This document shows positions 32,793 through 64,000 of a stretch of DNA of 64,000 nucleotides, piece after piece. The DNA comes from Psilocybe cubensis. Lineage: Eukaryota. The position numbers and the translations under genes were made by a program. The stretch lies in NCBI GenBank assembly GCA_017499595.2, contig CM039010.1, positions 930,001 to 994,000 of the forward strand, given 5' to 3'. Each line of letters begins with the position of its first letter. The stretch's first letter is position 1. The notes beneath the pieces were generated by a model. That model did not search any database. It worked only from the letters and a program-made list of their open reading frames with translations, and was not told the origin of the DNA.

Positions 32793-35274
32793 AGTAGTGT
32801 TGTTATAAAGAAAGTCGACTTTTGAAAAGAGTTGTGCACAAACGAATCAATCGAATAAACCAAAACAATGAAAATAAAAAAGGAAGGGAAGAGGACACCA
32901 GGTCTCCTCTGGGGAACCAAAATGAAAGATGAATATTAGGGAAGCAAGAGATTCTGTGCGTTTATATGCTTTTCCTCAGCCCCTGCTCCCCTGCTTGACA
33001 AGCACGGAGGTACCGAAAGACCCACCGATCGACAGGCACTAGACAGGATGTCATAGGCATCAGATGAACAATCACACATTATGGAGCTGGAATGCTTAAA
33101 CCTGCCAAAACTACGCTGGTAACAAGCGGAGAAGGTGTTCGCTCGTCAGCCCAGGGAAAAGGGTGCCGACTGTTGACTGATTGCAATGCCATTTCCGCAA
33201 TTAAATTATGAGATTGAGGGTGCCAGATTAAAGATAGCTCAACTCCTGGATCAAAATAGAATCCAGCTGTTAGTATACTCAATAGGAGGGAGAACGTATC
33301 ACGAACCTGAACATAAACAGCATCAAGCATTCCCAGGGAGCGTCCTGAGCATAACCGTTCTCGATGGACTACTTTAACCTCTGGGAAAATCACCCAAAAC
33401 CAAGCTGTATTGTTTCTCTTTGGGAATGTCGAGTTAGAGGAGAGTAGCGTCAGCCAGCGTCAGTTTAGTTGAATAAGTGGTTTTGTAGGCGTGACAACCA
33501 AATGAAAAGTGGGCGCAGAAGCAAAAATGATCGACAATAGAATGTAGCGCGCGAATTCCAGCCTGCGCTCTGAGATTCGAGGTCCAGTGCAGTCCAGTGT
33601 GGAGAAGACTTCATCAATAGCACATATGAATCGCACAGGTTCCAACGTCGAATTTCGAGTTAGCAACGACCTGTCATGGATTTACAGCTTCATCACTGCC
33701 CACCCCTGCGAAGTTTGACGCTTCCACATGCATCGAATTGAATGTCGAGAAAAATATATGCTCGAGTAGACGGTCTATAATAAGAAAAGGCGTTTGTAAT
33801 CACACAGTCAATCTATGAATATCCCATACTGTAAGAATAGATAAAAACCCCTATAGCTGGAGTAGATCAACAACGAAACCTCACCTAACTTAGCTGTTGA
33901 CGTCGATCGATGCGATGCGGTGGAATGAATGGTGGCCTAGGCAACTTCCCTCCCAACCAGTGGACACTGGCGTTGTGCACCATCTGTATGACTGTATGTA
34001 TGCGCCCTAAAAGTCTGACGAGCGGCTTTCACGATGTTACATGACCAGTCTAGCGCTGATGACAAGACAACAACTCGATGGGCGAATAGAAAGTGCGGCA
34101 AGGACTTTGAACCTTTTGAGCAATGTAAGCCTACAATAAGAGATAACTGAAGAAGAGAAGCTTTCAATCTTTTGTTACTTTCATCAAAGATCTAGAGACT
34201 TACTTGAACTCGACTTGACCCAAATTTGAAAATCGGTCAAGTAGGATTGAATGGCAGGAAAAGGTGATGTAGCTCATCATTGATGCACTGTTCCGGTCGC
34301 TCAGAGAAATATAAATGGCATACAACTTGTTAAAGGTGCATTCTTTCGCGTTGAAAAAGGGATCAGAATGAACATTATGCAAAGTTCACGTTCGTGCTCA
34401 ATGTTCAAGGAGGAGTGAACGTAGTGTGACAATTCGGGTCACAAAATCCGTGAATGCGGAGTTTGAATGTGAAAAGTCTGCCGGCGAAGACCGTTCAAGG
34501 TGCTTCCGTGCCACCAACGTGCCACTGACAATTTTTTCACCATCGATTCGGAGTGGCACTTGAGTGGCACCAAACGGTATCGCTGCAATACCCTGCGTTC
34601 AACGCACAAGGCTTTTAGGGACATCTAAGACTCTATACCTTTGCTTTTGATGGGACTTCAACAGATGTCGTTGGTCAGTTAAAATCTTTGTTCATAAGTT
34701 GAAACGACGCATTCACGCCTCAGGATGCTCTTCAATCGAGCATGGTAATGTTGTGCCACTCTCCTTTTTTCTAGTAATATCAGTACCGGGACGATCACTA
34801 CATACGTCGATATGTGGCATACAGATCATTGTGGATTCAACCCCTCCTTAAACAGATGATTCTTCAAGCGTGCATAGAAAGACCGATAACCTGGTAAGAG
34901 AAACGAGGTTACTTTCAACATCGTGTTTCCAAACAGGCCTTCTAATTCCACAGCTACGCGTAGCGAGGTGTCAAAAAAAGGTATTAGGACCCTACCGTGA
35001 GGACGGTTCAACTCCTTTCCGTGAAGACAATGAGGCATTGGCAAGAAAATGATTCGTTCTGACTTGGGATTTGATGGATAGTATCTCATTAGAAGCTTCG
35101 GGAATACCCAGGAGTGGCCATACACAGCAGGGTGGCCCTCGTCCTGCAGTCTCATTCCAGAAATGGAAAATAATTGGATTGTCATATGGTCCGGTGGAGG
35201 TCCTAAAATAGAACACGAGTCAAGGTCGGCGGGCCCCCGAGGTGCCCCCGTGTTGTGGCACACAATCCTCAAGG

Positions 35275-35280
35275 TATAAA
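35275..35280 (+). promoter_or_regulatory. TATA box candidate for the first transcription unit of the repeat
   Basis: TATAAA followed by a CT-rich tract; conserved in copy 2. Confidence 0.4.
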
Positions 35281-35391
35281 TCAGGCCGTCTTGAAAATTT
35301 CTCGTCCACCGTCCCCACCTCTGCTCCCTCCACACACCGCTCGACGACGCCTCTGCCTTCCTCCTTCCGCCCACGCATACACGACTACCCT

Positions 35392-35657
35392 AACGCCCCC
35401 TTCGGTTGGTGAAAGATTTTATCGCTTCTCGCTTGCGAGTCAAGCAGACATAATCTTCACCGTGTGTTTTTATACTTCAGCTTCCAACGCCCCCCTTCGG
35501 TTGGTGAAAGATTTTATCGCTTCTCGTTTACGAGTCAAGCAGATATAATCTTCATCGTGTGTTCTTATGCTTCTGCTTCCAACGCCCCCCTACGGTTGGT
35601 GAAAGATTTTATCGCTTCTCGCTCACGAGTCAAGCAGATATAATCTTCACCGTGTTT
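35392..35657 (+). repeat. Tandem 94-95-bp repeat x about 2.8, each unit a long hairpin
   Basis: Units start at 35392, 35486 and 35581; core GGTGAAAGATTTTATC-GCTT-CTCG-N4-CGAG-TC-AAGC-A-GAYATAATCTTCAYC. Mirrored at about 63586-63851. Confidence 0.9.
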
Positions 35658-35854
35658 CGCATCACTGAGTTCTATGTAAGGGAGATTCTTTGTGGTATCT
35701 ATTATACTTCTGCTGCCAGTGTCTCTTTGTGCGAGGTTGTGCTATGCTGGGTTCTAGGTATGTCTCGCATTCGCAATGATTTGGTACATCCATACTTACA
35801 CGGGTTCACAGTTCTGCTGGGATACGATATCTTGCTACGTCTACCTCCTCGTCA

Positions 35855-35998
35855 AATCGAAAAGAGCTATATGCCACAACAAAAAGAGCCACAGGGCCAC
35901 ATCGAAAAGAGCCACGGAGCCACATTGAAAAGAGCCACAGAGCCAAAGTGAAGAGCTCATTGAGCCATCGAAAAGAGCCATAGAGTCACATTGAAGAC
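35855..35998 (+). repeat. Short degenerate repeat array (GAAAAGAGCCAC core, about 22-bp period, 5-6 units)
   Basis: ATCGAAAAGAGCTAT, AAAAAGAGCCACA, ATCGAAAAGAGCCACG, ATTGAAAAGAGCCACA, ATCGAAAAGAGCCATA; mirrored at about 63243-63388. Confidence 0.85.
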
Positions 35999-38672
35999 TC
36001 ATAGTGCGTGCTTGTGTTTTCGACCTTTCTGTCTTGGATATGCTTTCAATGCCTGGGTGATCGTCGTCCTTGCTCTGGGTTGTTGGTTCTGTCAACATCT
36101 TCCGAAGACATCGTCAATGCCACAGTGAAGGTGCGTATCCCAGGACCGGTGTGGGGCTTTGACGCAGCTCCTGGGCTTACGACGAAACCTGAGGAGTTTA
36201 CACTCCGATATGGCTTCTGTCAACCAACGCCACACCACTCTGACCTCCCGCATAGTGTGGCCAAACGGCAAAGCCATTCCCCCTAATCGAAAGGGGAGCG
36301 GAAGGGATCGTTGTGGTCTAGCAAATGGTGAGTGTTGATATCTTCTCTGTAGTGCAGTGCTCAGCTGGCTTTTCAGGTTCTTAAACTTTCTCTAAGCCTG
36401 CCCGATGAATCTGCTTGTATGCGGTACGTTTTTTGTGTGTCATTATATTTTTCCATATTTATAATACTCTGGGTACAGTTCACTGCTCCTCATCTGTCGT
36501 GTCCTATCCCCCTCGCGTGGACAACGACACCTACCACTCTCAGTCATGCCGGAACACGGAGAATTGAAGTGGTAAAGGTCCTGGATGCTTCATGCATTCA
36601 GTTGACACTGTCGGTCAGCGATAACCACATCGCTGATTGGCAAAGCTTGCGAGACGGACCTCTGATCCGTCTGCAAGACTGAGTTTTCTGTACTTGGCCG
36701 GTGAGGACAATTACCTCAGCCGGCCCACTTGTTAGAATGTAAGTAAGTCAATTATGTACTGCAAACATCAAGTCGATTCTTCCAACTGATTATTCACATT
36801 TCTTCAGGTGATTCGTATAAGCGTATGAACCTGGACTTGGCTTTTAAGTACGTACAGCCGCCCTTTCCTCTGAAGATATATATGTCTAACCTTTCTGCCA
36901 CGCAGGTGTCGAAAGATTGTTCCAAGGCTCCTGCCTAACAAAATCTCCCCAAGAGACTCATGATAGGTGGTTGCAGCATAATCTACCACTCGTTGCCTTT
37001 GAACGAGCTGGTAAAGGTTCGCAGGATACCATCGTATCTGCGAACACTGCCGCTCTGATCGAGGCATCGGATCAGTTGCCGACGTCAGAGCAGCAAAGCC
37101 TTCCTCGCGGCTGACGGGTTGGAAGGATGGTTTCCATCCACCTATCAATCAGAAATTTCTTGATTGATAAAGACAAGTCGATTGTCCTCAGCGACAAGCG
37201 GCTGGTATTTTTTCCGGCAGGATGTGTCCGGTGGGACACTTGTGCTCCCTTGTCGTTGGGCTGCTGGCTTGTAGGTTGGCTTTGTCAATATGGCAAGGTC
37301 AATCGACTAAACGCACAATAGAATCACACATTTACATCATCTGTTTCTTTGTCTAGGTATGTGTTCTTACCGTTAACACATGGTCACAAATCTAACTATC
37401 TCTCTAGGCTAAGTTATCCTCCGACAGAGGTACGACTTGGCTATGTTGCGAGGAATTGCTACTTTTATTCACTCCATACAATTACACTACATTTTGCCGT
37501 AACGAATAATGAATTTTGGAACGTCCCTCTGTTCTTCAAAACGTTAATATGTTCTTTAAGTCCGTCATTAATTGTAAAAGTTATTTTGATTTAAAAGGGA
37601 GTGATGTGATGCATCGAAAAGGTGTAGGAGAATGGAATCCGTCAGAGAATGAAAGACCTGCCGCTCTTGATTCGCAGACTCTGTAAACTGTAGAGGAAAT
37701 CCACAAAGAGGGTTAAATTGCATGCGTTCCCGAGTGCCACGATCCACTTGAGCGCGAAGTAGGGCCAGGTCGGCGATCGCCGAAAAAAGACGCGACAACG
37801 GTAATTGCCGTGAGAAAATGACGCCATACACACAAGACGCGCCACTCAAAACGGCACTTGGGAATATTTCGAAAGCTTGACCCAAACTTGATCGACAAAA
37901 CCGAAACCGACATCCATCTGAAATCGAAACGGTATTGCAACTTCATATCACTCTACGGTTGCATTGCACTAGGTACTAGGGGGAGAACCGTGGTACAACT
38001 TGCCAGCAGTGGGTACAACGTGTCGGGCAACTAGCACAGTCCTGTTTGAGTGAGTCATAATTCTGTCAAAGGACGGGTTCCCAGCGGGCGATTGGCTAGT
38101 CATATTTTTTCAGTCGTTGATGGATGGACTGGAACGATCATATATGTTAAAGGCAAGTTGGTTCCAGGTTATTGTATACATCAAAATGGCATGTAAAAAG
38201 AATACCGAAGAACTCAGAAGGCCTCGGATTGTCGGCTGCCAGAAGTCCGGCCCTGCAATTTTTTTCTGAAACAATGACAAAACGCCTCCAGAAATTCCCA
38301 CCAAATTTCCATGGAGGCTTTTAACCTGCCTAGATGCGCATGGCCGAGGAACAGAAGAGAGGCACTATCAGTACCCCGTGAGCGCAATCTAACTCCTTTC
38401 TTCTAAGGCCAACGAAAAAAGACAAACGATGTTCCTTTATTATGCGTTATCTGATTGATACTCCATCGAAGCATACGGAGGCCGCCCGCACGTCTACGGG
38501 CTCGCATAGCAAAAATTTATTTTCTAAATCAGGTAATTTCCTGTGGTTGGAAACATGGACTGCCTGCCGTCATGTCAAGAACCCTGAAATAGAACGCGTG
38601 CCGAGAAAGCCGTCTTACTCATTGTGTGTGGCCTTGGGAGAGTGGCTGACAGCGGCAGGCAGGGGCTGGAAG

Positions 38673-38679
38673 TATATAA
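38673..38679 (+). promoter_or_regulatory. TATA box candidate for the structured spliced transcript
   Basis: TATATAA about 70 bp upstream of the first donor (38748); conserved in copy 2. Confidence 0.45.
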
Positions 38680-38704
38680 CATGTTGCATTTTCGTCAGCC
38701 TCAT

Positions 38705-39820
38705 CCCTCAGCGAAATGCACCCCCAACTCCTCCGCGAAAGAGGAAGGTAAGACGACGACTGCATCACGGACTGGGCCACACGGCCTGGTCCGTCGATTT
38801 AATCGTCGTCAGCTATTCTATGCCAGACCCCGCCGCCTGATTAAAAGGTAAGAATTCCTGGTATCATTTCTTCAGATTCACAGACTGACTGACACATTGT
38901 GCTATGACAGGCTATGGCTTCTGGTTTGATCCAAAGGCAAGTCCATGGTTTCTTCAAGGCGGTATTGTTCGGAATACTTACAATTCCATCTTGAACAGAT
39001 ACTCGGCTCACATCCACTCGCGAGCCCCGCACTACCGCCCTTGGTGTAGCCAAACGGCTGCACTTTGGGCGGTAAAGGTCCCCAGAATCGCAGACGGGTT
39101 CTGGGGATACTGTCGGAAGAAGCGTTCGAAACCGAACGCTTCACCGGCAAAGCTCATTGGGTGGCCAAACGCCGCCCATGAGATCGATGACCGGCTGGGG
39201 CCCAACGCCCTAGCCGGTCTTGTGCAATCTATGTAAGTTGCACTTGCTTTACTCATTTTGAGCATCTACTTAATCGCACTCTTCCTTTCTCTTAGGTGTC
39301 TGAATATGTCTCACGAGGAAACTGTCTATGTACGTGTGCTCGCATTCTTTTATTCACATCTCTTACTCACTCTATCGACAGGTTATGTGCTCTATGGCTG
39401 CAATGAATCGTCTGAAATGCAATACTAACCCTACCCGTCGCGCGACTGCGGTCGCACCCCTACCGTCCCCCGGAGAGACCCCGCGGGTAGGCGGGGTCTC
39501 GCTGGCAAGAGAGCTGGACGGTAATGTAGGCGCCTCTCGAAATCGATCGAGGCGCCACTGTCGCATCCGCGCGCCTTCCGGCCGGATCGACAAAGCCCAC
39601 CATCCGGTGGGAGTTTCTTTTCTAGAAAGCCAGCAGACGCCTCACGGCGTCGCGCAGGCCCTACTACCCTGAGCCGCCTCTGGGTAGTAAAGGCACACGT
39701 ACTCGACACTCGTCGAGTACGAATTTTTTTCCCATACACCGGTGTGCCGCCTTGTCGTGGCGTATGGGCTAAACGCATTCGGTTCCACTTGTGGGATCAA
39801 ATGCGGCCAAGAGCACACCA
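38705..39820 (+). ncRNA. Candidate spliced, highly structured long non-coding RNA
   Basis: Introns 38748-38812, 38848-38910, 39233-39295 and 39330-39381 (GT..AG). Exons 38911-39232 and 39382-39820 are serial stem-loops with G-U pairs on this strand. The first ATGs give only a 19-aa ORF. The start coordinate is a guess. Confidence 0.5.
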
Positions 39821-40384
39821 CCTTCATTGATTTCCTACTTTCCTGTGCTTCCTCTTATTCCTCCGCTCAGCTCTAACCATTGACAGCATTTGAAGGTGAG
39901 TCAGATGTAGTATATTTTATCTTCCATTATACTGGTAGATAGTTGTACATACAATCCAATGATCAACTATCTTGCATGCAAAATAAATTAACCCTGAGGA
40001 TAAGAAATATCTATTGCTCATTGTTTAATTAAGACAAAGCAAACAAGGGAAAGTATACCTGTTGAATCAAATGCACCATGTTCTTTTTCAAGTTGGAAAA
40101 TTACTTGTCAAGTAAGAGCACATCCCGACTCACATCACGGAGAGTCATGTTTAAATTTTAAGAAACATTGTCAAGTAACAATAAGAGGAGGAGATGGTGT
40201 CTTATCGTTGAATAAAGAAATGCAACCAAAGAAAGAGGAGGGATTAACCTGTATCAATCGAATTGCAGCGCTTCTTAGTTAACCAGTCGGAATGGTGAAG
40301 TTGGCATGAATATTCATGTTTGAGTCGACAAATTCAGCAATAAACCCTTTCCCACAAGCTTCCGAAATGGCAGCAAAGATGCGC

Positions 40385-41798
40385 TCACGCTGCCTTGAAC
40401 ATCTCAGCACCTAACAATTGCATTCTCACCTCATGTTTCCTTCTACGTTCCTCCATATCTGCCTGCAACTTCAAGCGTTGTAACTCTGCGGCTGCCTGCT
40501 TCTCCTGCCCCTCGTTTTCCAGTTGTTTTAGCTTGATCTTCAGCTCCAGCATGCGATAGTCGCTTTGTTTTCCGGGTGCAGAACAATGTCCGTGTTTATA
40601 AGACTCGTGCCGGGTTTTGCTACGCGTAGTTCTCGAGCTAGATGTTGATATTTCCGAGACAGAATGGGAGTTTCTCCGCTTGACTGATACATGCGGTGTG
40701 TGGCTCCTATTAATAAAAGCAGGTTGTCATTAAATAATTCCTGGGACGAGGCAACGAAGAGGTTTTGGGCTCCGAGATACGCACTTTTTGATGCGTCGCC
40801 GGTGCTGTGATGGCTGGCCCCCTGTTTCCCCTTCAAATCCAGAAGCTTCACTATCCGAACTCGAAGGCGACATCTCGTCACTGTTCTGGAGAGCGCATTA
40901 ACACGGTTTGGAATGAGATACACTGTATCACCGGCAGGCTTACAGTTGACATCCCGTGTGAAGGAGCAGAAGTAGTACGCCTCCTTCTCCTCCCACCCGA
41001 TCTTTTAAGGTTACCCCTTAAATACTGGTTAAAGGTTGGGTTATTTCTCCAGTACTTGTGTAACCTGTCCCATAGGTATTCGGGAGGCAAAAATTCAGTT
41101 TCTGCTAACGTGAGGACGAGAAATGGGTTAGTAAAAAGTTAGAAAGAGCTAAGTGAAGGCTTATCTTGTTGCATCTTACCCGGTATTTCTCCAACCTTCC
41201 AAGTACCTCTCGGCTTAAATTCAATATCATCCAGTCGCAGAATACTATCGAGTTTGATTTCTGGCTTAGACTCCATAATTTCTTTGTTAACAGTTTGGTA
41301 CGTCTTCTTCCACCTGGTAATGTGTCGTTACAAAGAAGGATATGTGGTTTATCAACCGATGGTCATAACACGTACCTCTCATGGATGTGATACTTTACCT
41401 GCATAGAAAACGGCATAAAGATCTTGTTCAACCTCTTGTCAATATCCGGCACATTTCGAACAAGCTGCTTTTTCAGGTGTGCGAGGGCATCCTCCAGATT
41501 GCCATGAATACCGTGTGCTTGAAGCCTTTGTGGAATGGTGCCGTCGTCGTCATCCGTTGAATAGAGATGCAGCGCAGCACGAGCGTAGCATGCTCCCAGG
41601 GTGAGAGTTTCGCCCCGGATGGGTACCGTGACGTCGAAAATGACGTCTCGTTCCTCGGGATGTCCATCTAGCCAGTCGAGCAAGTCAATGGCGCGCCGTG
41701 GGTTGTCCTCAAATCTGAAGTACACTAAGTAGAAGATTTCACGTTTGAAGCTAGAAGACTTGAATCAGAAAAAATCACTTACGACCAATGCCGGGCAT
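40385..41798 (-). CDS. Hypothetical agaricomycete protein (helical N-domain, LHxYWxxxPxFN motif, C-terminal coiled coil)
   Basis: Exons splice in frame: MPGIGLYFRFEDNPRRAIDLLDWLDGHPEER...VKYHIHERWKKTYQ...YLWDRLHKYWRNNPTFNQY...MLELKIKLKQLENEGQEKQAAAELQRLKLQADMEERRRKHEVRMQLL. Confidence 0.7.
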
Positions 41799-44316
41799 GT
41801 GCAGAACTCCCTCTTTGTTAGGTTGGATAAACCAAAGACGGCCCCTGGCTTATATAGTCTACAAAGAAACGAGGTCAAGTAACGTATCATCATTGAATAT
41901 ATGCTACACGTCATCATCCTGTCAGAGAAGTTAACGTACAAGTTGACCAATGTCGGGCAAGATTAGGGAAGAAAGCAAATTTGAAGTGAGCTGGAATGAA
42001 GGTGACGTTATTGAACTTTAATTCCGCTAGCAGTAGGTTGACCGACCAGAGTGAGGGACAGTGACCAAAGTTACTGAGACAGGGATGAAACTTCGCGCCT
42101 GGTGCACCATGTAGATAAACAGGCTTTATATGTGCAATTGGATGAATCATACTCCTCCCAGTAAGTTTGAAGAAGAGGAAAGTAAGCTCACCGACATTCA
42201 GATACATGAGTTGATTCACACAGCGAACCTATTCTATCACATTCACCGGCACCGTCAAGTTTTCCCCGTTCACGCATACACATATACAAGCGAGAACATC
42301 TTCGAGGTGATGCTAAGACTGCACAAGCGTGTTGCGTAAACCTATAGAGGGAGAACACTTATACAAGGATCACTACGTGAGGTGACCGTGACGAGGGAGG
42401 GCTGAGCTGGATGATAGGTTTGGAATTGGGGTTGAATGTGGACACAGAGGATGTGGTGGGAACTACAGACGTGCGTAGAGAAGTTGTGGGGCCCTGAAAG
42501 GAGAGGAAAAGAGGAGGAGAAGGAAGATGGCAGTAAGAAGTGCTAGATGAGCAGCTTCGACGCTGCAGAATGCTTGTTGATAAAAGCAATGAGTCGGTAT
42601 ACGGGAGTTTCTTCGAGTAAGGACGAACATTTACTAACCTGTCAATATATCCACACATAGACAACGACGTCCTCCACAACTCAGTGTTCTACACCAAAAC
42701 ATAAGGATCGAGACATGACAGAAAAAGCACCGCCAACGCATTCTTCTGAATCACATGGAACACTGGGCAAACTTTGTAGTAAGAGTGGTGTCGTTTTCAT
42801 TGTCGTGGCTGTAAAGTTGAAACCCTTGATGATGTTCGAGGGTCAAATCAAGACTCGAGACTCGTGTTCGTGTTAATTAAATTAAAGTTGTTTCTCTTTT
42901 TACTGTAGACACACGGATCAGAAAAACTTTCATCAAGCATGTCATGACTCGCTCGATCGCCACCACTCAGCCACTTGCGTTAACATAGTCTCTGTGGGGC
43001 TCGATGAACCTACAATGAACTGTGTTGTTTTTCGAGTTCAAATCAAGTCCTTAAATTACTTTACGCTTGAATTGGCAATTCCACTACTAGACAAATGCTA
43101 CTCTGCTGGGATACAGTATGTCATTTTTTTACCTCTTCTATCGTTACTGAAGCATTTGTACACTTAGTATTAGCTATCCGAGTCTCGGAAGTCGTAGTCC
43201 GATAACGTTTGTTGGGGCCCTCGGACTGATGCTGTGTCAATGTGATTTCCATTAGTTGAAAACACCAACGGCAAGTTCCTATCTCAACTGATTTCAAGAT
43301 TCCAAGAATACAACGACCGCGTCTCTCGAACCCGCATGGCACATGTACAACATCTACTCACACATTATGTTCCCGAAGGCTGTTGTGGAAATCCCAGGAC
43401 GACTTCAAAATTGATGACACACGTCCAAGGTCGAATCATGTTCTGAAAATAGGGGTTCACTGAGAAGTATTCGGAGATACAGCCACCCGGTGAACGACTC
43501 AGATCTGCAGAGAAAATGCAGGACGAAATCACGGCACAACGGGCGCTTAATTAGCACAGTCGTTTAAAGACGTACATGATGGTTAAACAGGTAGAGATTG
43601 AATATGTTATACTGCACGTAAAGGAAGATCTGATTAATATTTAGCTATACACACATCTCCAGAACAATGATGGGCGGGCTTGGTTAATGTGTGCACCAGC
43701 ACAACGGGGGAGTTTTGCACAAGATGGACAGCATGATAAATTGTACCGGCGCATTGTTCTATATATGCCTCTGTATTCTCACAGTGATGTTATCTTCCAC
43801 TTGGTCGTCTCATGGTACAAACGTATCAGTGATTGGGTCAAAGCAGAACACACTGAATATGTTCCTGACTGCGCCAGTTTATCTTCGCACTGTTTCCACT
43901 CATCAAGTCAAAATTGGCGGGGCACTGACAGATGCAGGTATAGATTATAACCTCGCGCTTAAAGAATTTAGTGACAATCGATTGGCCAATATCCTTGAAA
44001 CGATTGTGCTCTGGTCGTACCCTTGAGACTTGCAGTATTGCTAGAAATCATGGATATATTCGGAAATGTTGTTTATTTATTCTATCAATCGAGCAGTGGC
44101 TAGGGTCAAGCATCAAAGTGGCGGAACTATTTGGACTTTGCCGCCACTCCCCTAGTTATGGACATGTAGCAAAGATTTTGATTGTTGTACTATAATCCAA
44201 GACGGTAAAGTGGAACAAAGCAACCCATATGTAGGAGGCAGTGCAAAGAGAAAACAAATAAATAGAATCGACAATAGATGAGAGCAGCGTTTGTTACGAG
44301 AAAGAAGGCAGAATCC

Positions 44317-45682: not shown

Positions 45683-46089
45683 TCAAGTTGAACCAAGCGG
45701 TATGGGTTGTGGGAGAATTTAAGATTGGTGTTGACGTACGCATGTAGTAGCAACACTTAAACCAAGCTTAAACCCTAACCTAATCACAATAGCCAAACAA
45801 ATAAACGAGAATGCGACATTCCTACATTAGGTATTCATGTGACGCTTCCCTGGTTATGCCGCCGGGTTTACAGTGTTTTCCGATGAGCAAAAATCGGAAG
45901 GCTATATGCAGTGGTTTAGATGATGTAGAACTCAATGGTTGGGAAACCGTAAGAAACGGTAGACAATCAATATATTTATGGCACAATGACCGTTAGAAGG
46001 AGCTTGAAAACTGCCGCCGCCACTGGCCAGTGGCCACGATAGTCCCCAGGATAACTGATTGCAATCAAAAAGCGGAAAGAGTATCACAA

Positions 46090-53123: not shown

Positions 53124-56100
53124 ATGTCGTCCACAGGGTACCAAATGTCTACTCCCGCACGTTCGCGTTTGTCCGCACCCGCACTCGAAGGTGGAGGGTC
53201 GGACAATACCTGCTGTCAACATGACGACAACAAAGAGAAAGGAACAGAGGTCGAGGCAAAGCGGGATGCAGATGTAGAGTCAGTGTACATCGCCATCGAG
53301 CCTCCAGCGTCCAGTGTTACATATCCAGAGCAGCCTCCTTCACAACCCATTCCACCGCCCTCGTTTGATGCCTCGCAATTCGGGATCATCCTCCGCCACC
53401 AACGTCTCCGACCGCCTGACAATTCGGGCCTCAAGCTGCCGCCACCACATGCCACCCCCTCGCGCTTTGTACACCTTTCAAACGCGTTCGAGTTTGCTGG
53501 GTGGGGGTCGTCGATTCGAGTCAAGTTGACACAGCGAGAAAAGGAGGTGGGGGAGGAGAGGGTGAAGGTGGAGCGGGAGGAGAGAGAGAAGGGCCTGGGG
53601 CAGTGGACTGCTAGTGCTCTGGCGGGGAACGCGGTGCTGGGGAGCGTCTTCTACGCGTTGCCAGCTGTTGTGGGTGTTGCGGGGGTATAGTGAGTGTTTG
53701 GGCTCTTCTTTTTGACAAGATAGACTTACAGTTTTACAGCTCCCCCATCTCACTTTTCATTGCGGCACTCGTTCTCTTCCTGTGGCGGCCCATCATGGAA
53801 GAGCTTGCGGCGGCGCTGCCCATCAGCGGCGCACCGTACACGTACATGTGAGCTTTTCTTGCTTCTGTTTTCCGTGTTTATTGACTTTTGTAGCTTGAAT
53901 ATATCCACAAAATCCCTTGCACTGGTCACTGCTGCGCTCCTGCTGCTTGATTTCGCGTCGACGGCGATCGTGTCAGCGGCCACGGCCGCTGCATATCTCG
54001 CTGGGGAGCTCGGGTCAGGTGCGCGTTGCACTCATCGCTAATTCACCTCGAATCTGACTTTTCAGGCGACTCGGGACTCCCGTTCCCGACGTGGGTCGGC
54101 GCGGTGCTTGTACTCGTGCTCTTCACGCTCGTGAGTCTGTGGGGCGTACGCGAAAGCGCGCGGATTGCACTTGGTGTGCTGGGTGTGCATGTGCGTTTCC
54201 TGTCTTCATACCCATCGCAGGTGTTGATCAATTCACAGGTGCTAACGATGCTTGTGCTCGCGATCACAGCGTGCGTACACTGGGCGTCTATCGGCACTGC
54301 ACAGCTCCGCGCGAACTGGGCTCTTGGTGGTGGCCCGGGAGAAGGACGGAGTGCGGGGGCCATTGCGAAGCAGGTGTACTACGGCGTGTGTCTGGGGATG
54401 TTGGGTTTGACTGGGTTCGAGTGTACGTTTCCTCTCATTGAGTTCGATTCAATGACCATTTAATTCTTTTACAGGTACGCCATCGTACGTCTCGCGCATC
54501 AAGCCTGGACGATTCCCGCGCGTACTGCGCAACCTGCACCTCCCATCGATCGTGCTGAGCACAACTATGATGCTTCTCGTCCTCGCGATACTGCCAATGG
54601 ATGTGGCATTGCGCGGGGAGAACGTACTGAGTGTGTTGGCCGAGGTGGTGAGTTATATCTCTGTGGTACTTCACTTGACGCATGGAACTGATTAATTGAC
54701 AATGTATTGAACTTGTGAATAGTCGGGAGGGAGGTGGCTGCGTCTTTGGATCGTCGTGGACGCGGTTATCGTTCTGTGCGGAGGCGTATTAACAGGTATG
54801 CGCTTTTATACACGAAAAACGCGTGTATATTCACCCATCCGTCTCCACGTACAGGTATTCTAGCTGCGTCAGAGCTGCTCACCCAGCTCGCACAGCACCG
54901 CGTTCTCCCATCTTTCTTTCTTCTCCCTCTGCGCCTGCCTTTCAGACGGCCCAACCCTCTCCCTCGGCTTCCCACCCCTCCTCCGTCCGCCTCCCCCATC
55001 ACCACACCTGTCTCCCCAATCTCAAATCCGACACCCAGCTCATCCCCATCCCCAACACCTCACATCGCGATCCTGGTTTTCTCCCTTTTCAGCGGGGCGC
55101 TCTACGCAAGTGCGCTTGGCAGTCTCAGCGTCATTTCGGAGATGTTTTCCCTTGTGTGGGTGTGCGTGATGGGCGTGTTCCCGGTTGCTGGCATGCTTTT
55201 AAAATTTGAGCGGGGAAGACTGGTACGAGGGGTTGGTGTTGGAGTGGAATTGTGTGCTGTGCGGAACTCTGGGGAACGGATGAGGGAGAGGGGAGGTGAA
55301 GATGAACAGGTGGAGCAGGGAGCGAAAAGGGGAGTCGGGGGAAGAAGGAAAGGAGGGGAGAGGAAGACGAGGCTTCTTGTTATTCTCGCTGCGCTTATCG
55401 TCGCGCCGCTGGTCTTTGCGGGGAATGTAGCGTATAACCCTAAGACGGCTGGGTAAGTCCCTTTCGCACTTTTTTTTACTATTTTGCGATTGCTTTCGAA
55501 ATCATACAACATAACTTGTTGTTTACTGGTTGCCCTCGCTTTCACATTTTTTTCGCTTCTCTCGCATGAGCATTGCATCCACATTTTCTTATTGCCCTAA
55601 ATACTCATATTTACACCTTCTTTCACGTAGCTACTTCTCCGCCTACTTCATCGGCATCCTCCTCTTCTTCTCCGCAACGCAGAACAAAGTTCACCTGTTG
55701 CGGTGGCTGTATTGGGTGTACGACCAGTACCCTTCGCTGCATGTGTGGCGGGTGACGTCTGCGTGGGGCGAAGGGCTCATTTCTCTGATGCGGCGACTGA
55801 AGCGACAGCCAGTGTGTATACTCGTTAAAAGCGATGAGGTACGTTTTTCGTTTTTGTGAAAATTTTGTTAGTTGGCATGAAGACTGCTGATACAAATTTT
55901 TTGATAAAGATTAATAGCTTGTTTCATATGGTTATGTATGTGAGGAAGAACGAGGAGACGTCATGTTTGAAGATTATACATTTTTATGAGGAAGAGAAGG
56001 AGATCCCATCTGAGTTAGAGGCAAACGCGAAAAGTGAGCTTTGTTGTTAATGCCATACATACATTCGGATTTTGACCGCCTTACGAACCTGAATAGTTCT

Positions 56101-56358
56101 AGACGAAGCATTTCCGGAGATTACTGTCGACTTGGTACGTCTCCTAATTCGCTTTCCCGTCGTCTACACATCGGACATCTTTTAACCTCTCGTCACTGGT
56201 ATTTCTAGATTCTGGTAGATGGGAAATTTGACCCTGCGCATATAGCAGCACTCTCCTACCGCCTTAAAATCCCGCAGTCGCTCATGTTTATGACCTGTCC
56301 GGGCCCGACATTCCCGTACTCTGTGGCGGAGCTTGGGACGAGGATTATTTCACTTTAA
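53124..56358 (+). CDS. APC-superfamily amino acid permease
   Basis: LGQWTASALAGNAVLGSVFYALP, GVRESARIA, GMLGLTGFE, GGVLTG, LDEAFPEITVDL; many TM segments across GT-AG exons; stop TAA at 56356-56358. Confidence 0.85.
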
Positions 56359-56681
56359 ATGTAAGATTGGGTCGACTGTGTATATTGATTGACTTCACGT
56401 ATATTAATGATGGGTACGATGGGGTGAGGCACGGATGCTACCATTGAGTTCTACATCATCTAAACCACTACAAATATGAGGCCTAAGGATATTGTACTGC
56501 CGCAGGATTGTCGTCTACTGGGCCATCAGGAGCCTTCCGATTTTTGCTCATCGGAAAACACTGAAAACCCGGCGGCATAACCGGGGAAGCATCACATGTA
56601 TACCAAATGTAGAAATGTCACCTTCTCATGTATTTGCTTGGTTTAAGTGTCCCACAACCCATACCGCTTGGTTCAACTTCA

Positions 56682-58040
56682 ATGATTCACGGCCCTCGAT
56701 CCAACTCATTATTGGTCCTTGGTGCTTTTACCTTCGCTGTGACAGCTAGTGCTATTACTCTCCTTTCCATCAAGCAGTCCAAGAAAAAGGTTCCCAAATC
56801 ACCCCGTCGGGAAAAGGTATGTTGTTCTTCGGCTTACCACCCTAGGTTCAGGAATAATCCATCTTGAATGTTAGCTACCAAAAGATCTCGAAACTTGGAA
56901 ATTTCTCAGCGTTGAGAAGTATATAGAAGTATGGGAAGAACTCCGACCTCTTCTCGAACAGCATAACTTTCAGCTGTGGACAACCACCCCCGGGATACAG
57001 CTCTGGGATTATGATCTGCCTCCACAGGGAGATAATTTCCTCTACTTGACTTCGCACGACGCCCCAAATAAGTCATGGGTAAGATGGCGCAGTTTCAGTT
57101 TTATAACGGTGTGCCTTCACCACGCTGCTCGTATGAATGGAATTCGCGACGTCGTTCTTCGTGTAGTTGCCCTATCAGGCGAAGGACAGACCCACCTGCG
57201 AATTATAAAGCGACTTGCATCCCCTCCAGACCAGTTGCTAAGCAGCAACCACATTCTGCCTATTTTACACGAGATTTACTTCCAGGATATTGTCATTATA
57301 GCCGTCCCAAAGCTTATTTTCGATCTTCGCGAGGTCCTTTTCTATCCAGAGACAAACTCCGTTGAAGACGCCTTATATATGGTTCTCCAGGCTTTTGAGG
57401 TGGGTTCATGTTGTTTCTTCCCCAGATTTGACCCGTATTTACCAATCACTTTACAGGCAACTGCATATCTCCATCGAAATCTTATTGCGCATCGTGTATG
57501 TTTCCCATTACTTGAAGGCGTTTCGTCTTATATGAATATCATTTCTAGGATTTATATATACCCAACTTTATGGTTGAATGGATGCCGGAGTCTTTGACTA
57601 AACGCACAACTGTGGCTCGTCCTAGGGTATACATGATCGATTTTGAAACTGCAGTTGACTTTCCAGCGGACTCCTTAGAGTCGGATAGGGTGTGCACATC
57701 GTTTCATCGGGATCTAGAGCAATTCGGTCGTCATATCGCGCCGGAACTTAGAACGAAGGAGCCATATTGCCCTTTTAAATTGGATATGTGGCAGTTGGGA
57801 AACGATCTACGTATCACTCTATTGGTGAGTAGTCAAGCTAATATTTTGTCAGTATAGATAATACTGACTCTCTCCAACAAGACCGGACTGGACGAGATCG
57901 ACAGACTTTGGCAGGCTCTTTGCGTACATAATCCTCAGGACCGCATGACAGCTGACATTGCCCTGAAGACTCTTGATGATTTTCTTCGTAAAACTCCTTC
58001 CATTGATCTCCACAGAAAGATATTATACCCGACCAATTAA
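56682..58040 (+). CDS. Atypical protein kinase, AgaK1-like (copy C, inverted)
   Basis: Same exons and motifs (IAHR/DLYIPNF, MIDFE, IAPEL); lies in an inverted duplication of 43903-45939 at 56440-58443. Confidence 0.85.
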
Positions 58041-58439
58041 GACTGGGGATTCTGCATTCTCGCAACTCTCATCTATTGTCGATTGGATTTATTTGTTTTC
58101 TCTTTGCACTGCCTCCTACATATGGGTTGCTTTGTTCCACTTTACCGTCTTAGATTATAGCACAACATTTAAAGTCCTTGCTACGTGTTCATAACTAGGG
58201 GAGTGGCGGCAAAGTCCATGCAGTTCCGCAATTTTGATGCTTGATCGTATCCACTCGATTGATAGAATAAATAAGCAACATTTTCGAATGAGTCCATGAT
58301 TTCTAGCAATAATACAATTGTCAGGGGTACGACCAGAGCACAATCCTTCCAAGGATATTGGCCAATCAATTGTCACTAAATTGTTTAAGGGCGAGGTTAT
58401 AATCTATACCTGCATCTGCCAGTGTCCCGCGAGTTTGAC

Positions 58440-59216
58440 TTGAACTTGTGAATAGTTGGGAGGGAGGTGGCTGCGTATTTGGATCGTCGTGGACGCGGTT
58501 ATCGTTCTGTGCGGAGGCGTATTAACAGGTATGCGCTTTTATACACGAAGAACGCGTGTATATTCACCCATCCGTCTCCACGTACAGGTATTCTAGCTGC
58601 GTCAGAGCTGCTCACCCAGCTCGCACAGCACCGCGTTCTCCCATCTTTCTTTCTTCTCCCTCTGCGCCTCCCTTTCAGACGGCCCAACCCTCTCCCCCGG
58701 CTTCCCACCCCTCCTCCGTCCGCCTCCCCCATCACCACACCTGTCTCCCCAATCTCAAATCCGACACCCAGCTCATCCCCATCACCAACACCTCACATCG
58801 CGATTCTGGATTTCTCCCTTTTCAGCGGGGCGCTCTACGCAAGCGCGCTTGGCAGCCTCAGCGTCATCTCGGAGATGTTTTCGCTTGTGTGGGTGTGCGT
58901 GATGGGCGTGTTCCCGGTCGCTGGCGTGCTTTTAAAATTTGAGCGGGGAAGACTGGTCCGAGGGGTTGGCGCTGGAGTGGAAATGGGTGATGTGCGGAAA
59001 TTCAAGTTTGGGGAACGGACGAGGGAGAGGTGAGGTGAAGGTGAAGGTGAACAAGTGGAGGAGGGAGTGAAGAGGGGAGTCAGGGTTAGGAGGAACAGAG
59101 GGGAGAGGAAGACGAGGCTCCTTGTTGCACTCGCTGCGCTCATTGTTGCGCCGCTCGTGTTTGTGGGGAATGTGGCGTATAACCATAAGACGGCTGGGTA
59201 CGTCCCTTTCGCACTT
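58440..59216 (+). pseudogene. Intron-containing internal fragment of the permease gene (copy of about 54707-55470)
   Basis: Near-identical direct repeat lacking the 5' and 3' parts; V-to-D change in a TM segment and a premature TGA at 59031-59033. Confidence 0.9.
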
Positions 59217-59402
59217 GAACCTCATCATTATTCATGTTCAATTGCCATGGTTTACTCTGAAATCCTTCAAATTCAATTGCAGGAGTATGACATCTCATTA
59301 GTCAAAAAAGTAGTTCATTGTATTAATACTGTAGACTAGTACACGGATAGATAGATACAATATCCCAATAAGTAGCGCTCACCTAGGCAAAGGAGAAGAA
59401 TA

Positions 59403-60520
59403 TGGTGTGCTCTTGGCCGCATTTGATCCCACAAGTGGAACCGAATGCGTGTAGCCCATACGCCACGACAAGGCGGCACACCGGTGTATGGGAAAAAAAT
59501 TCGTACTCGACGAGTGTCGAGTACGTGTGCCTTTACTACCCAGAGGCGGCTCAGGGTAGTAGGGCCTGCGCGACGCCGCGAGGCGTCTGCTGGCTTTCTA
59601 GAAAAGAAACTCCCACCGGATGGTGGGCTTTGTCGATCCGGCCGGAAGGCGCGCGGATGCGACAGTGGCGCCTCGATCGATTTCGAGAGGCGCCTACATT
59701 ACCGTCCAGCTCTCTTGCCAGCGAGACCCCGCCTACCCGCGGGGTCTCTCCGGGGGACGGTAGGGGTGCGACCGCAGTCGCGCGACGGGTAGGGTTAGTA
59801 TTGCATTTCAGACGATTCATTGCAGCCATAGAGCACATAACCTGTCGATAGAGTGAGTAAGAGATGTGAATAAAAGAATGCGAGCACACGTACATAGACA
59901 GTTTCCTCGTGAGACATATTCAGACACCTAAGAGAAAGGAAGAGTGCGATTAAGTAGATGCTCAAAATGAGTAAAGCAAGTGCAACTTACATAGATTGCA
60001 CAAGACCGGCTAGGGCGTTGGGCCCCAGCCGGTCATCGATCTCATGGGCGGCGTTTGGCCACCCAATGAGCTTTGCCGGTGAAGCGTTCGGTTTCGAACG
60101 CTTCTTCCGACAGTATCCCCAGAACCCGTCTGCGATTCTGGGGACCTTTACCGCCCAAAGTGCAGCCGTTTGGCTACACCAAGGGCGGTAGTGCGGGGCT
60201 CGCGAGTGGATGTGAGCCGAGTATCTGTTCAAGATGGAATTGTAAGTATTCCGAACAATACCGCCTTGAAGAAACCATGGACTTGCCTTTGGATCAAACC
60301 AGAAGCCATAGCCTGTCATAGCACAATGTGTCAGTCAGTCTGTGAATCTGAAGAAATGATACCAGGAATTCTTACCTTTTAATCAGGCGGCGGGGTCTGG
60401 CATAGAATAGCTGACGACGATTAAATCGACGGACCAGGCCGTGTGGCCCAGTCCGTGATGCAGTCGTCGTCTTACCTTCCTCTGTCGCGGAGGAGTTGGG
60501 GGTGCATTTCGCTGAAGGAG
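59403..60520 (-). ncRNA. Second copy of the candidate structured spliced ncRNA
   Basis: All four intron boundaries and the hairpins are retained; only two substitutions noticed in the hairpin exons. Confidence 0.5.
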
Positions 60521-63500
60521 ACTGACAAAAAGGCAGCATGTTATATACTTCTAGCCCCTGCCTGCCGCTGTCAGCCACTCTTCCAAGGCCACACACAATG
60601 AGTAAGACGGCTTTCTCGGCACGCGTTCTATTTCAGGGTTCTTGTTATGACGGCAGGCAGTCCATGTTTCCAACCACAGGAAATTACCTGATTTAGAAAA
60701 TACATTTTTGCTATGCGAGCCCGTAGACGTGCGGGCGGCCTCCGTATGCTTCGATGGAGCCCTATCAATCCGATAACGCATAATAAAGGAACATTGTTTG
60801 TCTTTTTTTGTTGGCCTTAGAAGAAAGGAGTTAGATTGCGCTCACGGGGTACTGATAGTGCCTTTCTTCTGCTCCTCGGCCATGCGCATCTAGGCAGGTT
60901 AAAAGCCTCCATGGAAATTTGGTGGGAATTTCTGCAGGCGTGTTGTCATTGTTTCACAAAAAAACTGCAGGGCCGGACTTCTGGCAGCTGTCAATCCGAG
61001 GCCTTCTGAGTTCTTCGGTATTCTTTTTACATGCCATTTTGATGTATACAATAACCTGGAACCAACTTGCCTTTAACATATATGATCGTTCCAATCTATC
61101 CATCAACGACTGAAAACATCTGACTAGCCAATCGCCTGCTGGGAACCCGTCCTTTGACAGAATTATGACTCACTCAAACAGGACTGTGCTAGTTGCCCGA
61201 CACGTTGTACCCACTGCTGGCAAGTTGTACCACGGTTCTCCCCCTAGTACCTAGTGCAATGCAACCGTAGAGTGATATGAAGTTGCAATACCGTTTCGAT
61301 TTCAGATGGATGTCGGTTTCGGTTTTGTCGATCAAGTTTGGGTCAAGCTTTCGAAATATTCCCAAGTGCCGTTTTGAGTGGCGCGTCTTGTGTGTATGGC
61401 GTCATTTTCTCACGGCAATTACCGTTGTCGCATCTTTTTTCGGCGATCGCCGACCTGGCCCTACTTCGCACTCAAGTGCATCGTGGCACTTGGGAACGCA
61501 TGCAATTTAACCCTCTTTGTGGATTTCCTCTACAGTTTACAGAGTCTGCGAATCAAGAGCGGCAGGTCTTTTATTCTCTGACGGATTCCATTCTCCTACA
61601 CCTTTTCGATGCATCACATCACTCCCTTTTAAATCAAAATAACTTTTACAATTAATGACGGACTTAAAGGACAGATTAACGTTTTGAAGAACAGAGGGAC
61701 GTTCCAAAATTTGTAATTCGTTACGGCAAAGTGTAATGCGATTGTATGGAGCGAAGAGAAGTAGTAATTCCTCGCAACGTAGCCCAAGTTTCAAAGACAA
61801 CGTACCTCTGTCGGAGGATAACTTGGCCTAGAGAGATAGTTAGATTTGTGAGCATGTGTAAACGGTAAGAACACATACCTAGACAAAGAAACAGATGATG
61901 TGGATGTGTGATTTTAGTGTGCGTTTAGTCGATTGACCTTGCCATATTGACAAAGCCAACCTACAAGCCAGCAGCCCAACGACAAGGGAGCACAAGTGTC
62001 CCACCGGACACATCCTGCCGGAAAAAATACCAGCCGCTTGTCGCTGAGGACAATCGACTTGTCTTTATCAATCAAGAAATTTCTGATTGATAGGTGGATG
62101 GAAACCATCCTTCCAACCCGTCAGCCGCGAGGAAGGCTTTGCTGCTCTGACGTCGGCAACTGATCCGATGCCTCGATCAGAGCGGCAGTGTTCGCAGATA
62201 CGATGGTATCCTGCGAACCTTTACCAGCTCGTTCAAAGGCAACGAGTGGTAGATTATGCTGCAACCACCTATCATGAGTCTCTTGGGGAGATTTTGTTAG
62301 GCAGGAGCCTTGGAACAATCTTTCGACACCTGCGTGGCAGAAAGGTTAGACATATATATCTTCAGAGGAAAGGGCGGCTGTACGTACTTAAAAGCCAAAT
62401 CCAGGTTCATACGCTTATACGAATCGCCTGAAGAAATGTGAATAATCAGTTGGAATCGACTTGATGTTTGCAGTACATAATTGACTTACTTACATTCTAA
62501 CAAATGGGCCGGCTAAGGTAATTGTCCTCGCCGGCCAAGTACAGAAAACTCAGTCTTGCAGACGGATCAGAGGTCCGTCTCGCAAGCTTTGCCAATCAGC
62601 GATGTGGTTATCGCTGACCGACAGTGTCAACTGAATGCATGAAGCATCCAGGACCTTTACCACTTCAATTCTCCGTGTTCCGGCATGACTGAGAGTGGTA
62701 GGTGTCGTTGTCCTTTCCCGCGGGCGAGGGGGATAGGACACGATGGATGTGGAGAAGCGACCTGTACCCAGAGTATTATAATTATGGAAAAATATGATGA
62801 AAGACAAAAAACGTACCGCATACCAGCAGATTCATCGGGCAGGCTTAGAGAAAGTTTAAGAACCTGAAAAGCCAGCTCAGCACTGCACGACAGAGAAGAT
62901 ATCAACACTCACCATTTGCTAGACCACAAGGATCCCTTCCGCTCCCCTTTTGATTAGGGGGAGTGGCTTTGCCGTCTGGCCACACTATGCGGGAGGTCAG
63001 AGTGGTGTGGCGTTGGTTGACAGAAGCCATATCAGAGTGTAAACTCCTCAGGTTTCGTCGTAAGCCCAGGAGCTGCGTCAAAGCCCCACACCGGTCCTGG
63101 GATACGCACCTTCACTGTGGCATTGACGATGTCTTCGGAAGATGTTGACAGAACCAACAACCCAGAGCAAGGACGACGATCACCCAGACATTGAAAGCAT
63201 ATCCGAGACAGAAAGGTCGAAAACACAAGCACGCACTACGATTCTTCAATGTGGCTTTATGGCTCTTTTCGATGGCTCAATGAGCTCTTCACTTTGGCTC
63301 TGTGGCTCTTTTCAATTGGTGGCTCCGTGGCTCTTTTCGATGTGGTCCTGTGGCTCTTTTGATTGTGGCATATCGCTCTTTTCGATTTGAAGAGGAAGAG
63401 AACGTAGCAAGATATCGTATCCCAGCAGAACTGTGAACCCGGGTAAGTATGGATGTAACAAAACATTGCGAATGCGGGACATACCTAGAACCCAGCATAG

Positions 63501-64000
63501 CACAACCTCGCACAAAGAGACACTGGCAGCAGAAGTATAATAAATGCCACAAAGAATTTCCCTTACATAGAACTCAGTGATGCGAAACACGGTGAAGATT
63601 ATATCTGCTTGACTCGTGAACGAGAAGCGATAAAATCTTTCACCAACCGTAGGGGGGCGTTGGAAGCAGAAGCATAAGAACACACGATGAAGATTATATC
63701 TGCTTGACTCGTAAACGAGAAGCGATAAAATCTTTCACCAACCGAAGGGGGGCGTTGGAAGCTGAAGTATAAAAACACACGGTGAAGATTATGTCTGCTT
63801 GACTCGTAAGCGAGAAGCGATAAAATCTTTCACCAACCGAAGGGGGCGTTAGGGTAGTCGTGTATGCGTGGGCGGAAGGAGGAAGGCAGAGGCGTCGTCG
63901 AGCGGTGTGTGGAGGGAGCAGAGGTGGGGACGGTGGACGAGAAATTTTCAAGACGGCTTGATTTATACCTTGAGGATTGTGTGCCACAACACGGGGGCAC
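59403..64000 (-). repeat. Copy 2 (inverted) of the 35242-39820 unit, runs off window end
   Basis: Reverse complement of copy 1 with scattered substitutions and small indels; begins TGGTGTGCTCTTGG. Confidence 0.95.

Follow-up and report, generated by a model that had tools for sequence, protein, structure and literature searches.

The DNA analysed here is a stretch of 64,000 nucleotides (nt) from the mushroom Psilocybe cubensis (GenBank assembly GCA_017499595.2, contig CM039010.1, positions 930,001 to 994,000 of the forward strand), which as a whole is called the window, and all coordinates count from its first letter. It contains a pair of inverted repeat arms that enclose 19.6 kilobases (kb) of unique sequence, and each arm carries two intron-bearing units that lack detectable coding capacity, are rich in clustered hairpins, and contain three sites that look like self-cleaving ribozymes of the hepatitis delta virus (HDV) type. 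The parts of this arrangement are:

35242-39820, plus strand: left arm, defined by self-comparison and read depth, with its true outer edge at about 34830-34882
59403-64000, minus strand: right arm, the mirror of the left, defined by self-comparison, its junction read by 22 reads of an independent run (X13) as loose ends at 39820, and cut by the window end
39821-59402, no strand assigned: unique interior of 19.6 kb, defined by self-comparison, Pfam matches and contigs

When the window was compared with itself by blastn, 35242-39820 matched 64000-59403 in inverted orientation with 97.1% identity over 4605 columns, and a repeat finder returned the same arm pair broken into collinear blocks of 96-99%. 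A MAFFT alignment of both arms held 139 differing columns, 108 of them substitutions. The right arm is truncated by the window end at 64000, and 35242 is therefore not the true edge of the left arm. Four public sequencing runs were mapped onto 30000-43800 with a match cut-off of 93%. In X13, an independent Illumina raw-read run, mean depth was about 57 in nine of the ten arm bins versus about 30 in 18 flank bins (about 1.9x), and in X5, which consists of contigs of another strain, contig depths were 34-41 in the arm versus about 17 outside. The tenth X13 arm bin, 37376-37836, had a depth of 28, and this stretch of the otherwise doubled arm has single-copy depth in X5 as well; the reads of one copy probably fall below the 93% cut-off there, because the arms differ most in this part. 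Doubled X13 depth was already present in the bin 34610-35070, the double-depth contig of X5 begins at 34882, and arm-type indel variants were read at 35234. Because all of these precede 35242, the true outer edge of the left arm lies at about 34830-34882 and the arm is about 5 kb long, so that the unit of at least 4.6 kb given in an initial annotation made from the sequence alone grows somewhat in length.

Twenty-two X13 reads run past 39820 into the sequence that adjoins the right arm in the window, both inner junctions are present in the X13 sample, and paralogue-type variants occur in the arm at about half frequency. The contigs of the other strain break at the same edges and have double depth. 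Both junctions and a depth of about 1.9x in an independent sample show that the pair is no assembly artefact and exists in two copies, not many. By read depth in X13 and X5, representing two strains, there are no further arm copies of at least 93% identity, more diverged copies lying beyond the reach of this test; for that range of identity the genome-wide copy count, proposed as a check by the initial annotation, comes to two and speaks for a segmental duplication and not for a multi-copy element. The inverted pair that it described is thus a two-copy inverted segmental duplication with copies 19.6 kb apart.

Two units, each equipped with a TATA box and introns, lie in every arm and are oriented inward, so that in the left arm all features are on the plus strand:

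35273-35282, plus strand: TATA box of unit 1, from sequence, with a mirror copy near 63960-63969
35392-35655, plus strand: 2.8 tandem copies of a 95-nt repeat, within the first exon of unit 1, from repeat search and folding
35856-35995, plus strand: 23-nt tandem repeat, 6.3 copies, in unit 1, from repeat search
37357-37407, plus strand: intron of unit 1, GT..AG, spliced out in an X10 contig
38672-38680, plus strand: TATA box of unit 2, from sequence
38748-39381, plus strand: introns of unit 2 and exon of hairpin domain Mc, all by prediction
38748-38812, 38848-38910, 39233-39295 and 39330-39381, plus strand: the individual predicted introns of unit 2

Several canonical short introns are also predicted in unit 1, and the number predicted in unit 2 is four or more. 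Each copy of its 95-nt repeat folds into an imperfect hairpin of about 24 base pairs (bp), and the consensus fold is almost without covariation because the copies are too alike. Two contig sets of presumed RNA origin, X10 and X11, bear on the transcription of the arms, and we regard them as RNA-derived because a dozen canonical splice joints are visible where their contigs cover the flanking genes. An X10 contig spans 36925-37434 with the intron 37357-37407 removed. In X11, a 220-nt contig covers 39760-39979 at a depth of 118 (less than 3 in X10); it starts inside or just after the candidate ribozyme R2 described below and stops 3 nt short of an AATAAA at 39982. A second X11 contig leaves the arm and continues for 255 nt in the right-hand interior. 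Expression at 39760-39979 differs strongly between the X10 and X11 libraries. At 37434 the contigs of both X5 and X10 diverge from the window sequence. The arms differ most from each other between unit 1 and unit 2, where there is also variation among strains.

Searches for protein-coding content in the arms were negative. Among the 124 open reading frames (ORFs) of at least 100 amino acids (aa) in the window, none inside the arms matched Pfam at E<=0.01, and at E<=5 the 11 ORFs of the left arm gave two matches at chance level (E 0.04 and 0.054). The longest arm ORFs, of 187 and 152 aa, had no homologue among 5.8 billion proteins. No Pfam family of a transposase, reverse transcriptase, integrase or Rep domain was found in the arms or the interior, and a tRNA scan of the window returned 0 genes. 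In Rfam, a search over 34500-40500 at E<=10 returned SNORD16, Scr1601, CcsR1 and Six3os1 alone, all at chance level. We consider that the two units of each arm, with their TATA boxes and introns, are RNA polymerase II units that encode no protein.

The arms are rich in secondary structure. They make up 14% of the window and hold 18 of its 28 perfect hairpins (stem of at least 8 bp, loop of 3-14 nt), nine per arm. Compared with shuffled sequence, the four structured exons fold with z-scores of -13.6, -10.5, -6.9 and -6.5. In mononucleotide shuffles the best block scored -9.8 on the plus strand versus -6.2 on the minus strand, one block showing the opposite, and several stems contain G-U pairs on the plus strand. 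The motifs CTACC, GGTAAAGG, ACTGYCG and CAAAGC occur as four collinear sets per arm and in that order nowhere else. They outline a domain of about 150-200 nt whose plan is CU-Pa-AAAG-Pb-ACU-Pc-AAAG-Pd, to which a fifth hairpin and a closing helix are often added:

36531-36735, plus strand: domain Ma, in an exon at about 36479-36738, from motifs and folding, with a mirror at about 62701-62497
36983-37135, plus strand: domain Mb, in an exon at about 36906-37356, from motifs and folding, within the RNA-derived contig 36925-37434
39032-39232, plus strand: domain Mc, five near-perfect hairpins in a closing helix (z -13.6), from motifs and folding, with a mirror at about 60191-59991
39460-39620, plus strand: domain Md, whose first linker is AAUG, not AAAG, from motifs and folding
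39661-39730, plus strand: partial domain Me, from folding, with a terminal 10-bp hairpin and then a tract of seven U (U7) at 39724-39730, directly before the predicted R2 cut

The linkers CU, AAAG, ACU and AAAG are present in all four copies, the AAUG being the single exception, and the stems they separate share no sequence; the closing pairs of the helices are conserved among the domain copies and the remaining stem sequence is unrelated. Constant linkers between unrelated stems are the pattern that selection on an RNA junction would produce. One hairpin of Ma contains just two differences between the arms, with pairing kept and a bulge moved by one base. The initial annotation had called the unit hairpin-dense and enzyme-less, with two TATA-plus-intron units and short repeat arrays, and had offered a segmental inverted duplication of an RNA-gene locus as one of its readings; the description holds, one intron of unit 1 being seen in an RNA contig and those of unit 2 being predicted, and this reading is favoured by two copies in read depth, the absence of coding capacity, TATA boxes with introns, strong folds and the ribozyme candidates.

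Known RNA classes were compared with the domain. Rfam holds nothing resembling the multi-hairpin domain, and none of its families (snoRNA host genes, snRNAs, RNase P/MRP, SRP or other ribozymes) is matched at gathering level. The linkers of the domain resemble the twister ribozyme core, but the helices do not fit, and there is no Rfam match, so twister was rejected; the hammerhead, H/ACA and C/D box readings were likewise set aside, since on inspection by eye the boxes are absent or unconserved among the copies. GGUAAAG...CAAAG was considered as an intron and dismissed because the X10 contig retains the stretch. A telomerase RNA was also considered, on account of a template-like CTAACCCTA (1.5 telomere-type repeats) at 39425-39433 in the last exon of unit 2, upstream of Md; this is at chance level, and four other 9-mers of the telomere repeat lie at three sites elsewhere in the window.

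A scan for the HDV double pseudoknot that used architecture only identified three mutually similar candidates on the gene strand of the left arm, R1, R2 and R3, each of which has a mirror copy in the right arm:

36139-36236, plus strand: candidate ribozyme R1 (P1 CCCAGGA/TCCTGGG, P2 GGTGTGG/CCACACC, P3 GCT/AGC, L3 TTGACGC), with a mirror at 63101-63004
37208-37213, plus strand: tract of six U (U6) directly before the predicted R3 cut, from sequence
37214-37318, plus strand: candidate ribozyme R3 (P1 CCGGCAG/CTGCTGG, a hairpin insert in J1/2, P2 TTGTGC/GCACAA, P3 CCC/GGG, L3 TTGTCGTT)
39731-39819, plus strand: candidate ribozyme R2 (P1 CCCATAC/GTATGGG, P2 GGTGTGC/GCACACC, P3 GCC/GGC, L3 TTGTCGT), with a mirror at 59492-59404

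The mirror copy of R3 starts at 62021 and has one P2 mismatch, leaving a P2 of 5 bp in the right arm. Common to the three candidates are a 7-bp P1 with at most one G-U pair, a P2 of 6-7 bp, a 3-bp P3 and a P4 hairpin, and in all three L3 reads UUGNCGN (7-8 nt), P1 opens with a C-G pair, P2 and P3 are separated by one extra nucleotide (a G in R1, a C in R2 and a U in R3), and a (G/A)C(C/U)AA just 5' of the 3' strand of P2 is a candidate context for the J4/2 cytosine. P1, P2 and P3 vary among R1, R2 and R3 by compensatory changes. The helices were tabulated by script and not by a covariance model, as MAFFT misregistered P1 of R1 and all of R3, and pseudoknot-free folding recovers P1, P3 and P4 in R1 and R3 and P2, P3 and P4 in R2. 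When R2 was compared with the Rfam family HDV-F-prausnitzii (RF02682), it aligned to model positions 1-74 of 74, starting exactly at the predicted cut, and its J4/2, GCCAAGA, aligned with the consensus GCUAAGA; the model omits P2, a helix of 7 bp without mismatch in R2. The contig depth of X11 rises from 0 over 38759-39680 to 62.9 over 39681-40141, a step that fits a cut at 39730/39731. Together these features make R1, R2 and R3 look like candidate HDV-like self-cleaving ribozymes, whose cleavage we infer.

Fungal HDV variants that carry a C-G pair where they are cleaved and an extra nucleotide between P2 and P3 have been reported and were shown to cleave; that report speaks of 'widely variable gene associations' and gives no known role (PMC5640933). 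As far as its text describes them, these variants share with our candidates the nested P1/P2/P3/P4, the C-G pair at the cleavage site and the extra nucleotide between P2 and P3. The main text of that report names no basidiomycetes, and the genera among the species listed belong to the Ascomycota. Unlike the variants presented there, the candidates here belong to a mushroom and lie inside spliced non-coding RNA polymerase II genes, where two of them immediately follow a U-tract. In the literature searched, no report of native self-cleaving ribozymes in Agaricomycete genomes was found.

A number of observations count against this assignment. The loose, architecture-only descriptor gave 55 matches in the window, most of them weak, AT-rich noise. 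A stricter descriptor gave five matches, each of them inside an arm, as against 0 when the window was resampled 20 times by a Markov model, but it was tuned on the matches themselves, so that the resample control is partly circular. The compensatory changes are among paralogues within one locus only. R2 scored 19.2 bits against RF02682, where the gathering threshold is 44, with E = 0.078 in a 121-nt search, R1 and R3 had no Rfam HDV match, and at the gathering level the whole window returned 0 Rfam matches. A possible P1.1 would consist of no more than a single Watson-Crick pair, between the G of L3 and the C that follows P1, next to a U-U. The likeness to the fungal variants of PMC5640933 covers two of the three distinguishing features set out in the text of that report, the C-G pair and the extra nucleotide; the third is a loop E motif that replaces part of P4. 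The X10 contig is unbroken across the predicted R3 cut, so that R3 leaves at least some transcripts uncut, if it cuts at all, and the contigs show neither RNA ends nor strand. Finally, among metagenome contigs the pattern GGTAAAGGT..ACTGYCG..CAAAGC occurred at 119 loci (marine, gut and soil), none with an upstream CTACC or the two-hairpin fold; one bacterial-looking metagenome sequence (three loci) folds, without the rest of the domain, and all of these loci were judged to be chance matches.

The inner edge of the repeat lies next to one of the candidate ribozymes. Arm homology stops at 39820 in the left arm and at 59403 in the right arm, 1 nt past the last paired base of R2, and a random breakpoint would fall that near to one given site in a 5-kb unit in about 1 of 1500 trials. 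Introns are retained in both copies, which makes retroposition of a mature RNA, or passage through an RNA intermediate, unlikely. HDV-like ribozymes occur at the 5' ends of retrotransposons that lack long terminal repeats, such as the R2 element (not to be confused with candidate R2). The likeness lies in a ribozyme at the exact boundary of a copied DNA unit; in those retrotransposons, however, it stands at the 5' end of a reverse-transcriptase unit, whereas here it stands at the 3' end of an enzyme-less unit whose introns are kept.

Identity between the arms is patchy. Across 38740-39820 there are two differences in 1081 nt where 25.5 would be expected (P = 3e-9), and across 36842-37317 (476 nt) there are 0 where 11.2 would be expected (P = 1e-5); elsewhere, 200-nt bins show differences of 5-7%. 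Because four predicted introns fall within the longer tract, selection on the product does not account for it, whereas copying between the arms does. This patchiness points to gene conversion, and we regard the duplication as young, its arms kept partly identical in this way. Low-copy inverted segmental duplications undergo gene conversion and can invert the DNA between their copies. The present pair is like them in having two inverted copies, kilobases long, with patchy identity and long identical tracts, and differs from them in that one edge of the repeat falls at the end of an RNA element. The arms, with a 1.08-kb tract that holds two differences, may in principle flip the interior; the junction reads are neutral on its orientation, as an inversion leaves every short-read junction unchanged. 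As a genome structure the inverted pair is of an ordinary kind, which might mediate an inversion.

Taken together, we consider it likely that the locus is an inverted duplication of about 5 kb of two non-coding, spliced RNA units composed of hairpin domains, with three HDV-like ribozymes, and that it has been partly gene-converted. In the mechanism that we propose, splicing of the primary transcripts would be followed by cuts that their own ribozymes make. The cut at R1 would free unit 1 of its capped leader, tandem repeats included, R3 would cut after the U6 tract at 37208-37213, and R2 after the U7 tract at 39724-39730. One product would extend from R1 to the U-tract before R3 and carry Ma and Mb, and the other would start at the unit 2 cap, stop at the U-tract that precedes R2 and carry Mc, Md and the partial Me. 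Both would measure about 0.7-0.85 kb after splicing, with a 3' end made of a hairpin and oligo(U) with a 2',3'-cyclic phosphate, and a downstream piece headed by the ribozyme would run on to the poly(A) site. The X11 contigs fit, if weakly, a stable downstream cleavage product from both copies, the upstream product being missed by such libraries. Self-cleavage, the RNA products, their function and the inversion of the interior are all steps that we infer.

Cyclic-phosphate end chemistry has been reported for the fungal HDV variants, as presented in the text of that report (PMC5640933), and the 3' end of the U6 small nuclear RNA (snRNA), an oligo(U) with a 2',3'-cyclic phosphate, is described as being recognised by Lsm2-8 (PMC7026655, PMC5931518). 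To the extent that these sources describe it, the U6 snRNA end is what a cut by R2 or R3 would resemble, giving a structured RNA that ends in six to seven U with a cyclic phosphate. In U6 snRNA, though, the end is made by Usb1 after RNA polymerase III transcription, whereas here it would be made by a ribozyme in an RNA polymerase II transcript. That Lsm proteins might bind these RNAs is suggested purely by analogy. A bolder extension, which we regard as rather doubtful, is that mushrooms possess a family of structured RNAs with the plan Pa-AAAG-Pb-ACU-Pc-AAAG-Pd, transcribed by RNA polymerase II and matured by ribozymes, whose U6-like end could recruit Lsm2-8 without Usb1 and give a stable nuclear ribonucleoprotein, and whose gene copies end at the last base of the ribozyme. 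If this were true, RNA genes would multiply as discrete cassettes bounded by ribozymes. The context at this locus is readable, as the genes are spliced and non-coding, the junction domains recur and covary strongly among themselves, and the predicted cuts come after U-tracts, and it offers a testable role for such ribozymes, that of setting the 5' and 3' ends of structured RNAs, together with a defined RNA domain to seek in other mushrooms. What would be new is HDV-like ribozymes embedded in spliced, modular non-coding mushroom genes; the inverted pair is of a known kind.

Other explanations for the arms concern either their origin as DNA or the nature of their transcripts. The arms could, as two of the readings in the initial annotation have it, be a non-autonomous transposable element or the inverted ends of a composite transposon carrying the kinase, Yip1 and permease genes of the interior. 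Copies that are 97% alike, inverted and bracketing genes would suit such an element, as would the lack of an enzyme and a sharp inner edge within 1 nt of the end of a defined RNA element. However, the depth is 2x and not multi-copy, with two copies only at the identities covered in two strains; no terminal inverted or direct repeats were seen at the known edges, the right outer end lying beyond 64000; and the genes of the interior are ordinary. The right end of the interior is, moreover, a patchwork of local copies (the kinase-like copy K3 and a permease fragment, listed below) with a 4-nt microhomology, which suits errors of replication or repair. Nothing favours the composite element, and we consider a transposon of either form very unlikely. 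An origin in the assembly could be imagined, as the repeat touches the window end and near-identical repeats are a classic source of misjoins, but the doubled depth, the half-frequency paralogue-type variants and both junction sequences in X13, together with contigs of another strain that break at the same edges with double depth, contradict it and make an artefact scarcely credible.

With regard to the transcripts, basidiomycete genes are intron-rich, several arm ORFs reach 100-187 aa and one intron is real, so that the arms might be protein-coding genes of many tiny exons in which the hairpins are incidental. Against this, there is no Pfam match and the longest two ORFs lack a homologue in the protein collection searched; the spliced frame of unit 2, read by eye through the predicted exons, runs from the first ATG to a stop after 19 codons; ORFs occur on both strands across the GC-rich hairpin blocks; and a z-score of -13.6 goes far beyond what a coding sequence needs. 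The chance of a coding locus is accordingly slim, slimmer than that of a transposon. Equally slim is the chance that the locus yields small interfering RNA, from paired arm transcripts or from diced hairpins. Inward transcription of inverted copies could give complementary RNA on read-through, but the arms are 19.6 kb apart with expressed genes between them, each arm is transcribed inward on its own sense strand, which gives transcripts that are identical and not complementary, and the individual stems, at 8-14 bp, are in general too short for Dicer. The duplicated, spliced non-coding units with candidate ribozymes thus remain our preferred interpretation.

The genes between the arms, which the initial annotation had described as about 19.6 kb with kinases, YIP1 and a permease, were assigned by Pfam (Yip1 and the permease) and, for a kinase-like ORF present three times, through a homologue in Psilocybe cyanescens:

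40388-41004, minus strand: spliced gene, from RNA-derived contigs
43903-45939, direct: kinase-like copy K1, from self-comparison
48555-50075, direct: kinase-like copy K2, from self-comparison
51015-51952, minus strand: Yip1, from Pfam
about 53100-55900, plus strand: amino-acid permease, from Pfam
56440-58443, inverted and adjoining the right arm: kinase-like copy K3, from self-comparison
58440-59216: copy of a 3' fragment of the permease, 777 nt, 92% identical to 54707-55471, from self-comparison

K1, K2 and K3 are 87-90% alike, with the two direct copies 4.3 kb apart. The kinase label comes from one homologue of 625 aa in Psilocybe cyanescens, at 47% identity, that has Pkinase domains; the kinase-like ORF pieces themselves had no match in Pfam or the PDB. 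The permease fragment is joined to the inverted K3 through a 4-nt microhomology, TTGA, at 58440-58443, and resembles an insertion templated by sequence 3.7 kb distant, of the kind found in complex rearrangements that arise by replication; the neighbourhood as a whole has the look of a local rearrangement of complex type. Going inward from the right arm one meets arm, filler and kinase, a mirror image of the left side with its order of arm, 4 kb, kinase. Because of this mirrored order, the inverted pair may be the remnant of a larger inverted duplication that was later remodelled.

X13 reads leave the window sequence at 39956 and at 43561-43570 (16, 21 and 13 reads), and an X5 contig also does so at 43570; these breaks are probably insertion or deletion polymorphisms of the interior. 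The genes to the left of the arm, assigned by Pfam, are ordinary for a fungus (F-box, CDC24, SPT5, BRO1 and AIM5). A gap of 61 nt with AT..GA ends interrupts the RNA contigs at 33249-33311, the neighbouring joints of the same minus-strand gene being all CT..AC, which reflects either an alignment shift or a non-canonical intron. Near the start of the window, the adjacent ORFs 585-2204 and 2628-4598, of 540 and 657 aa, each have an N-terminal F-box-like match just below the Pfam cut-off and are probably a tandem F-box pair.

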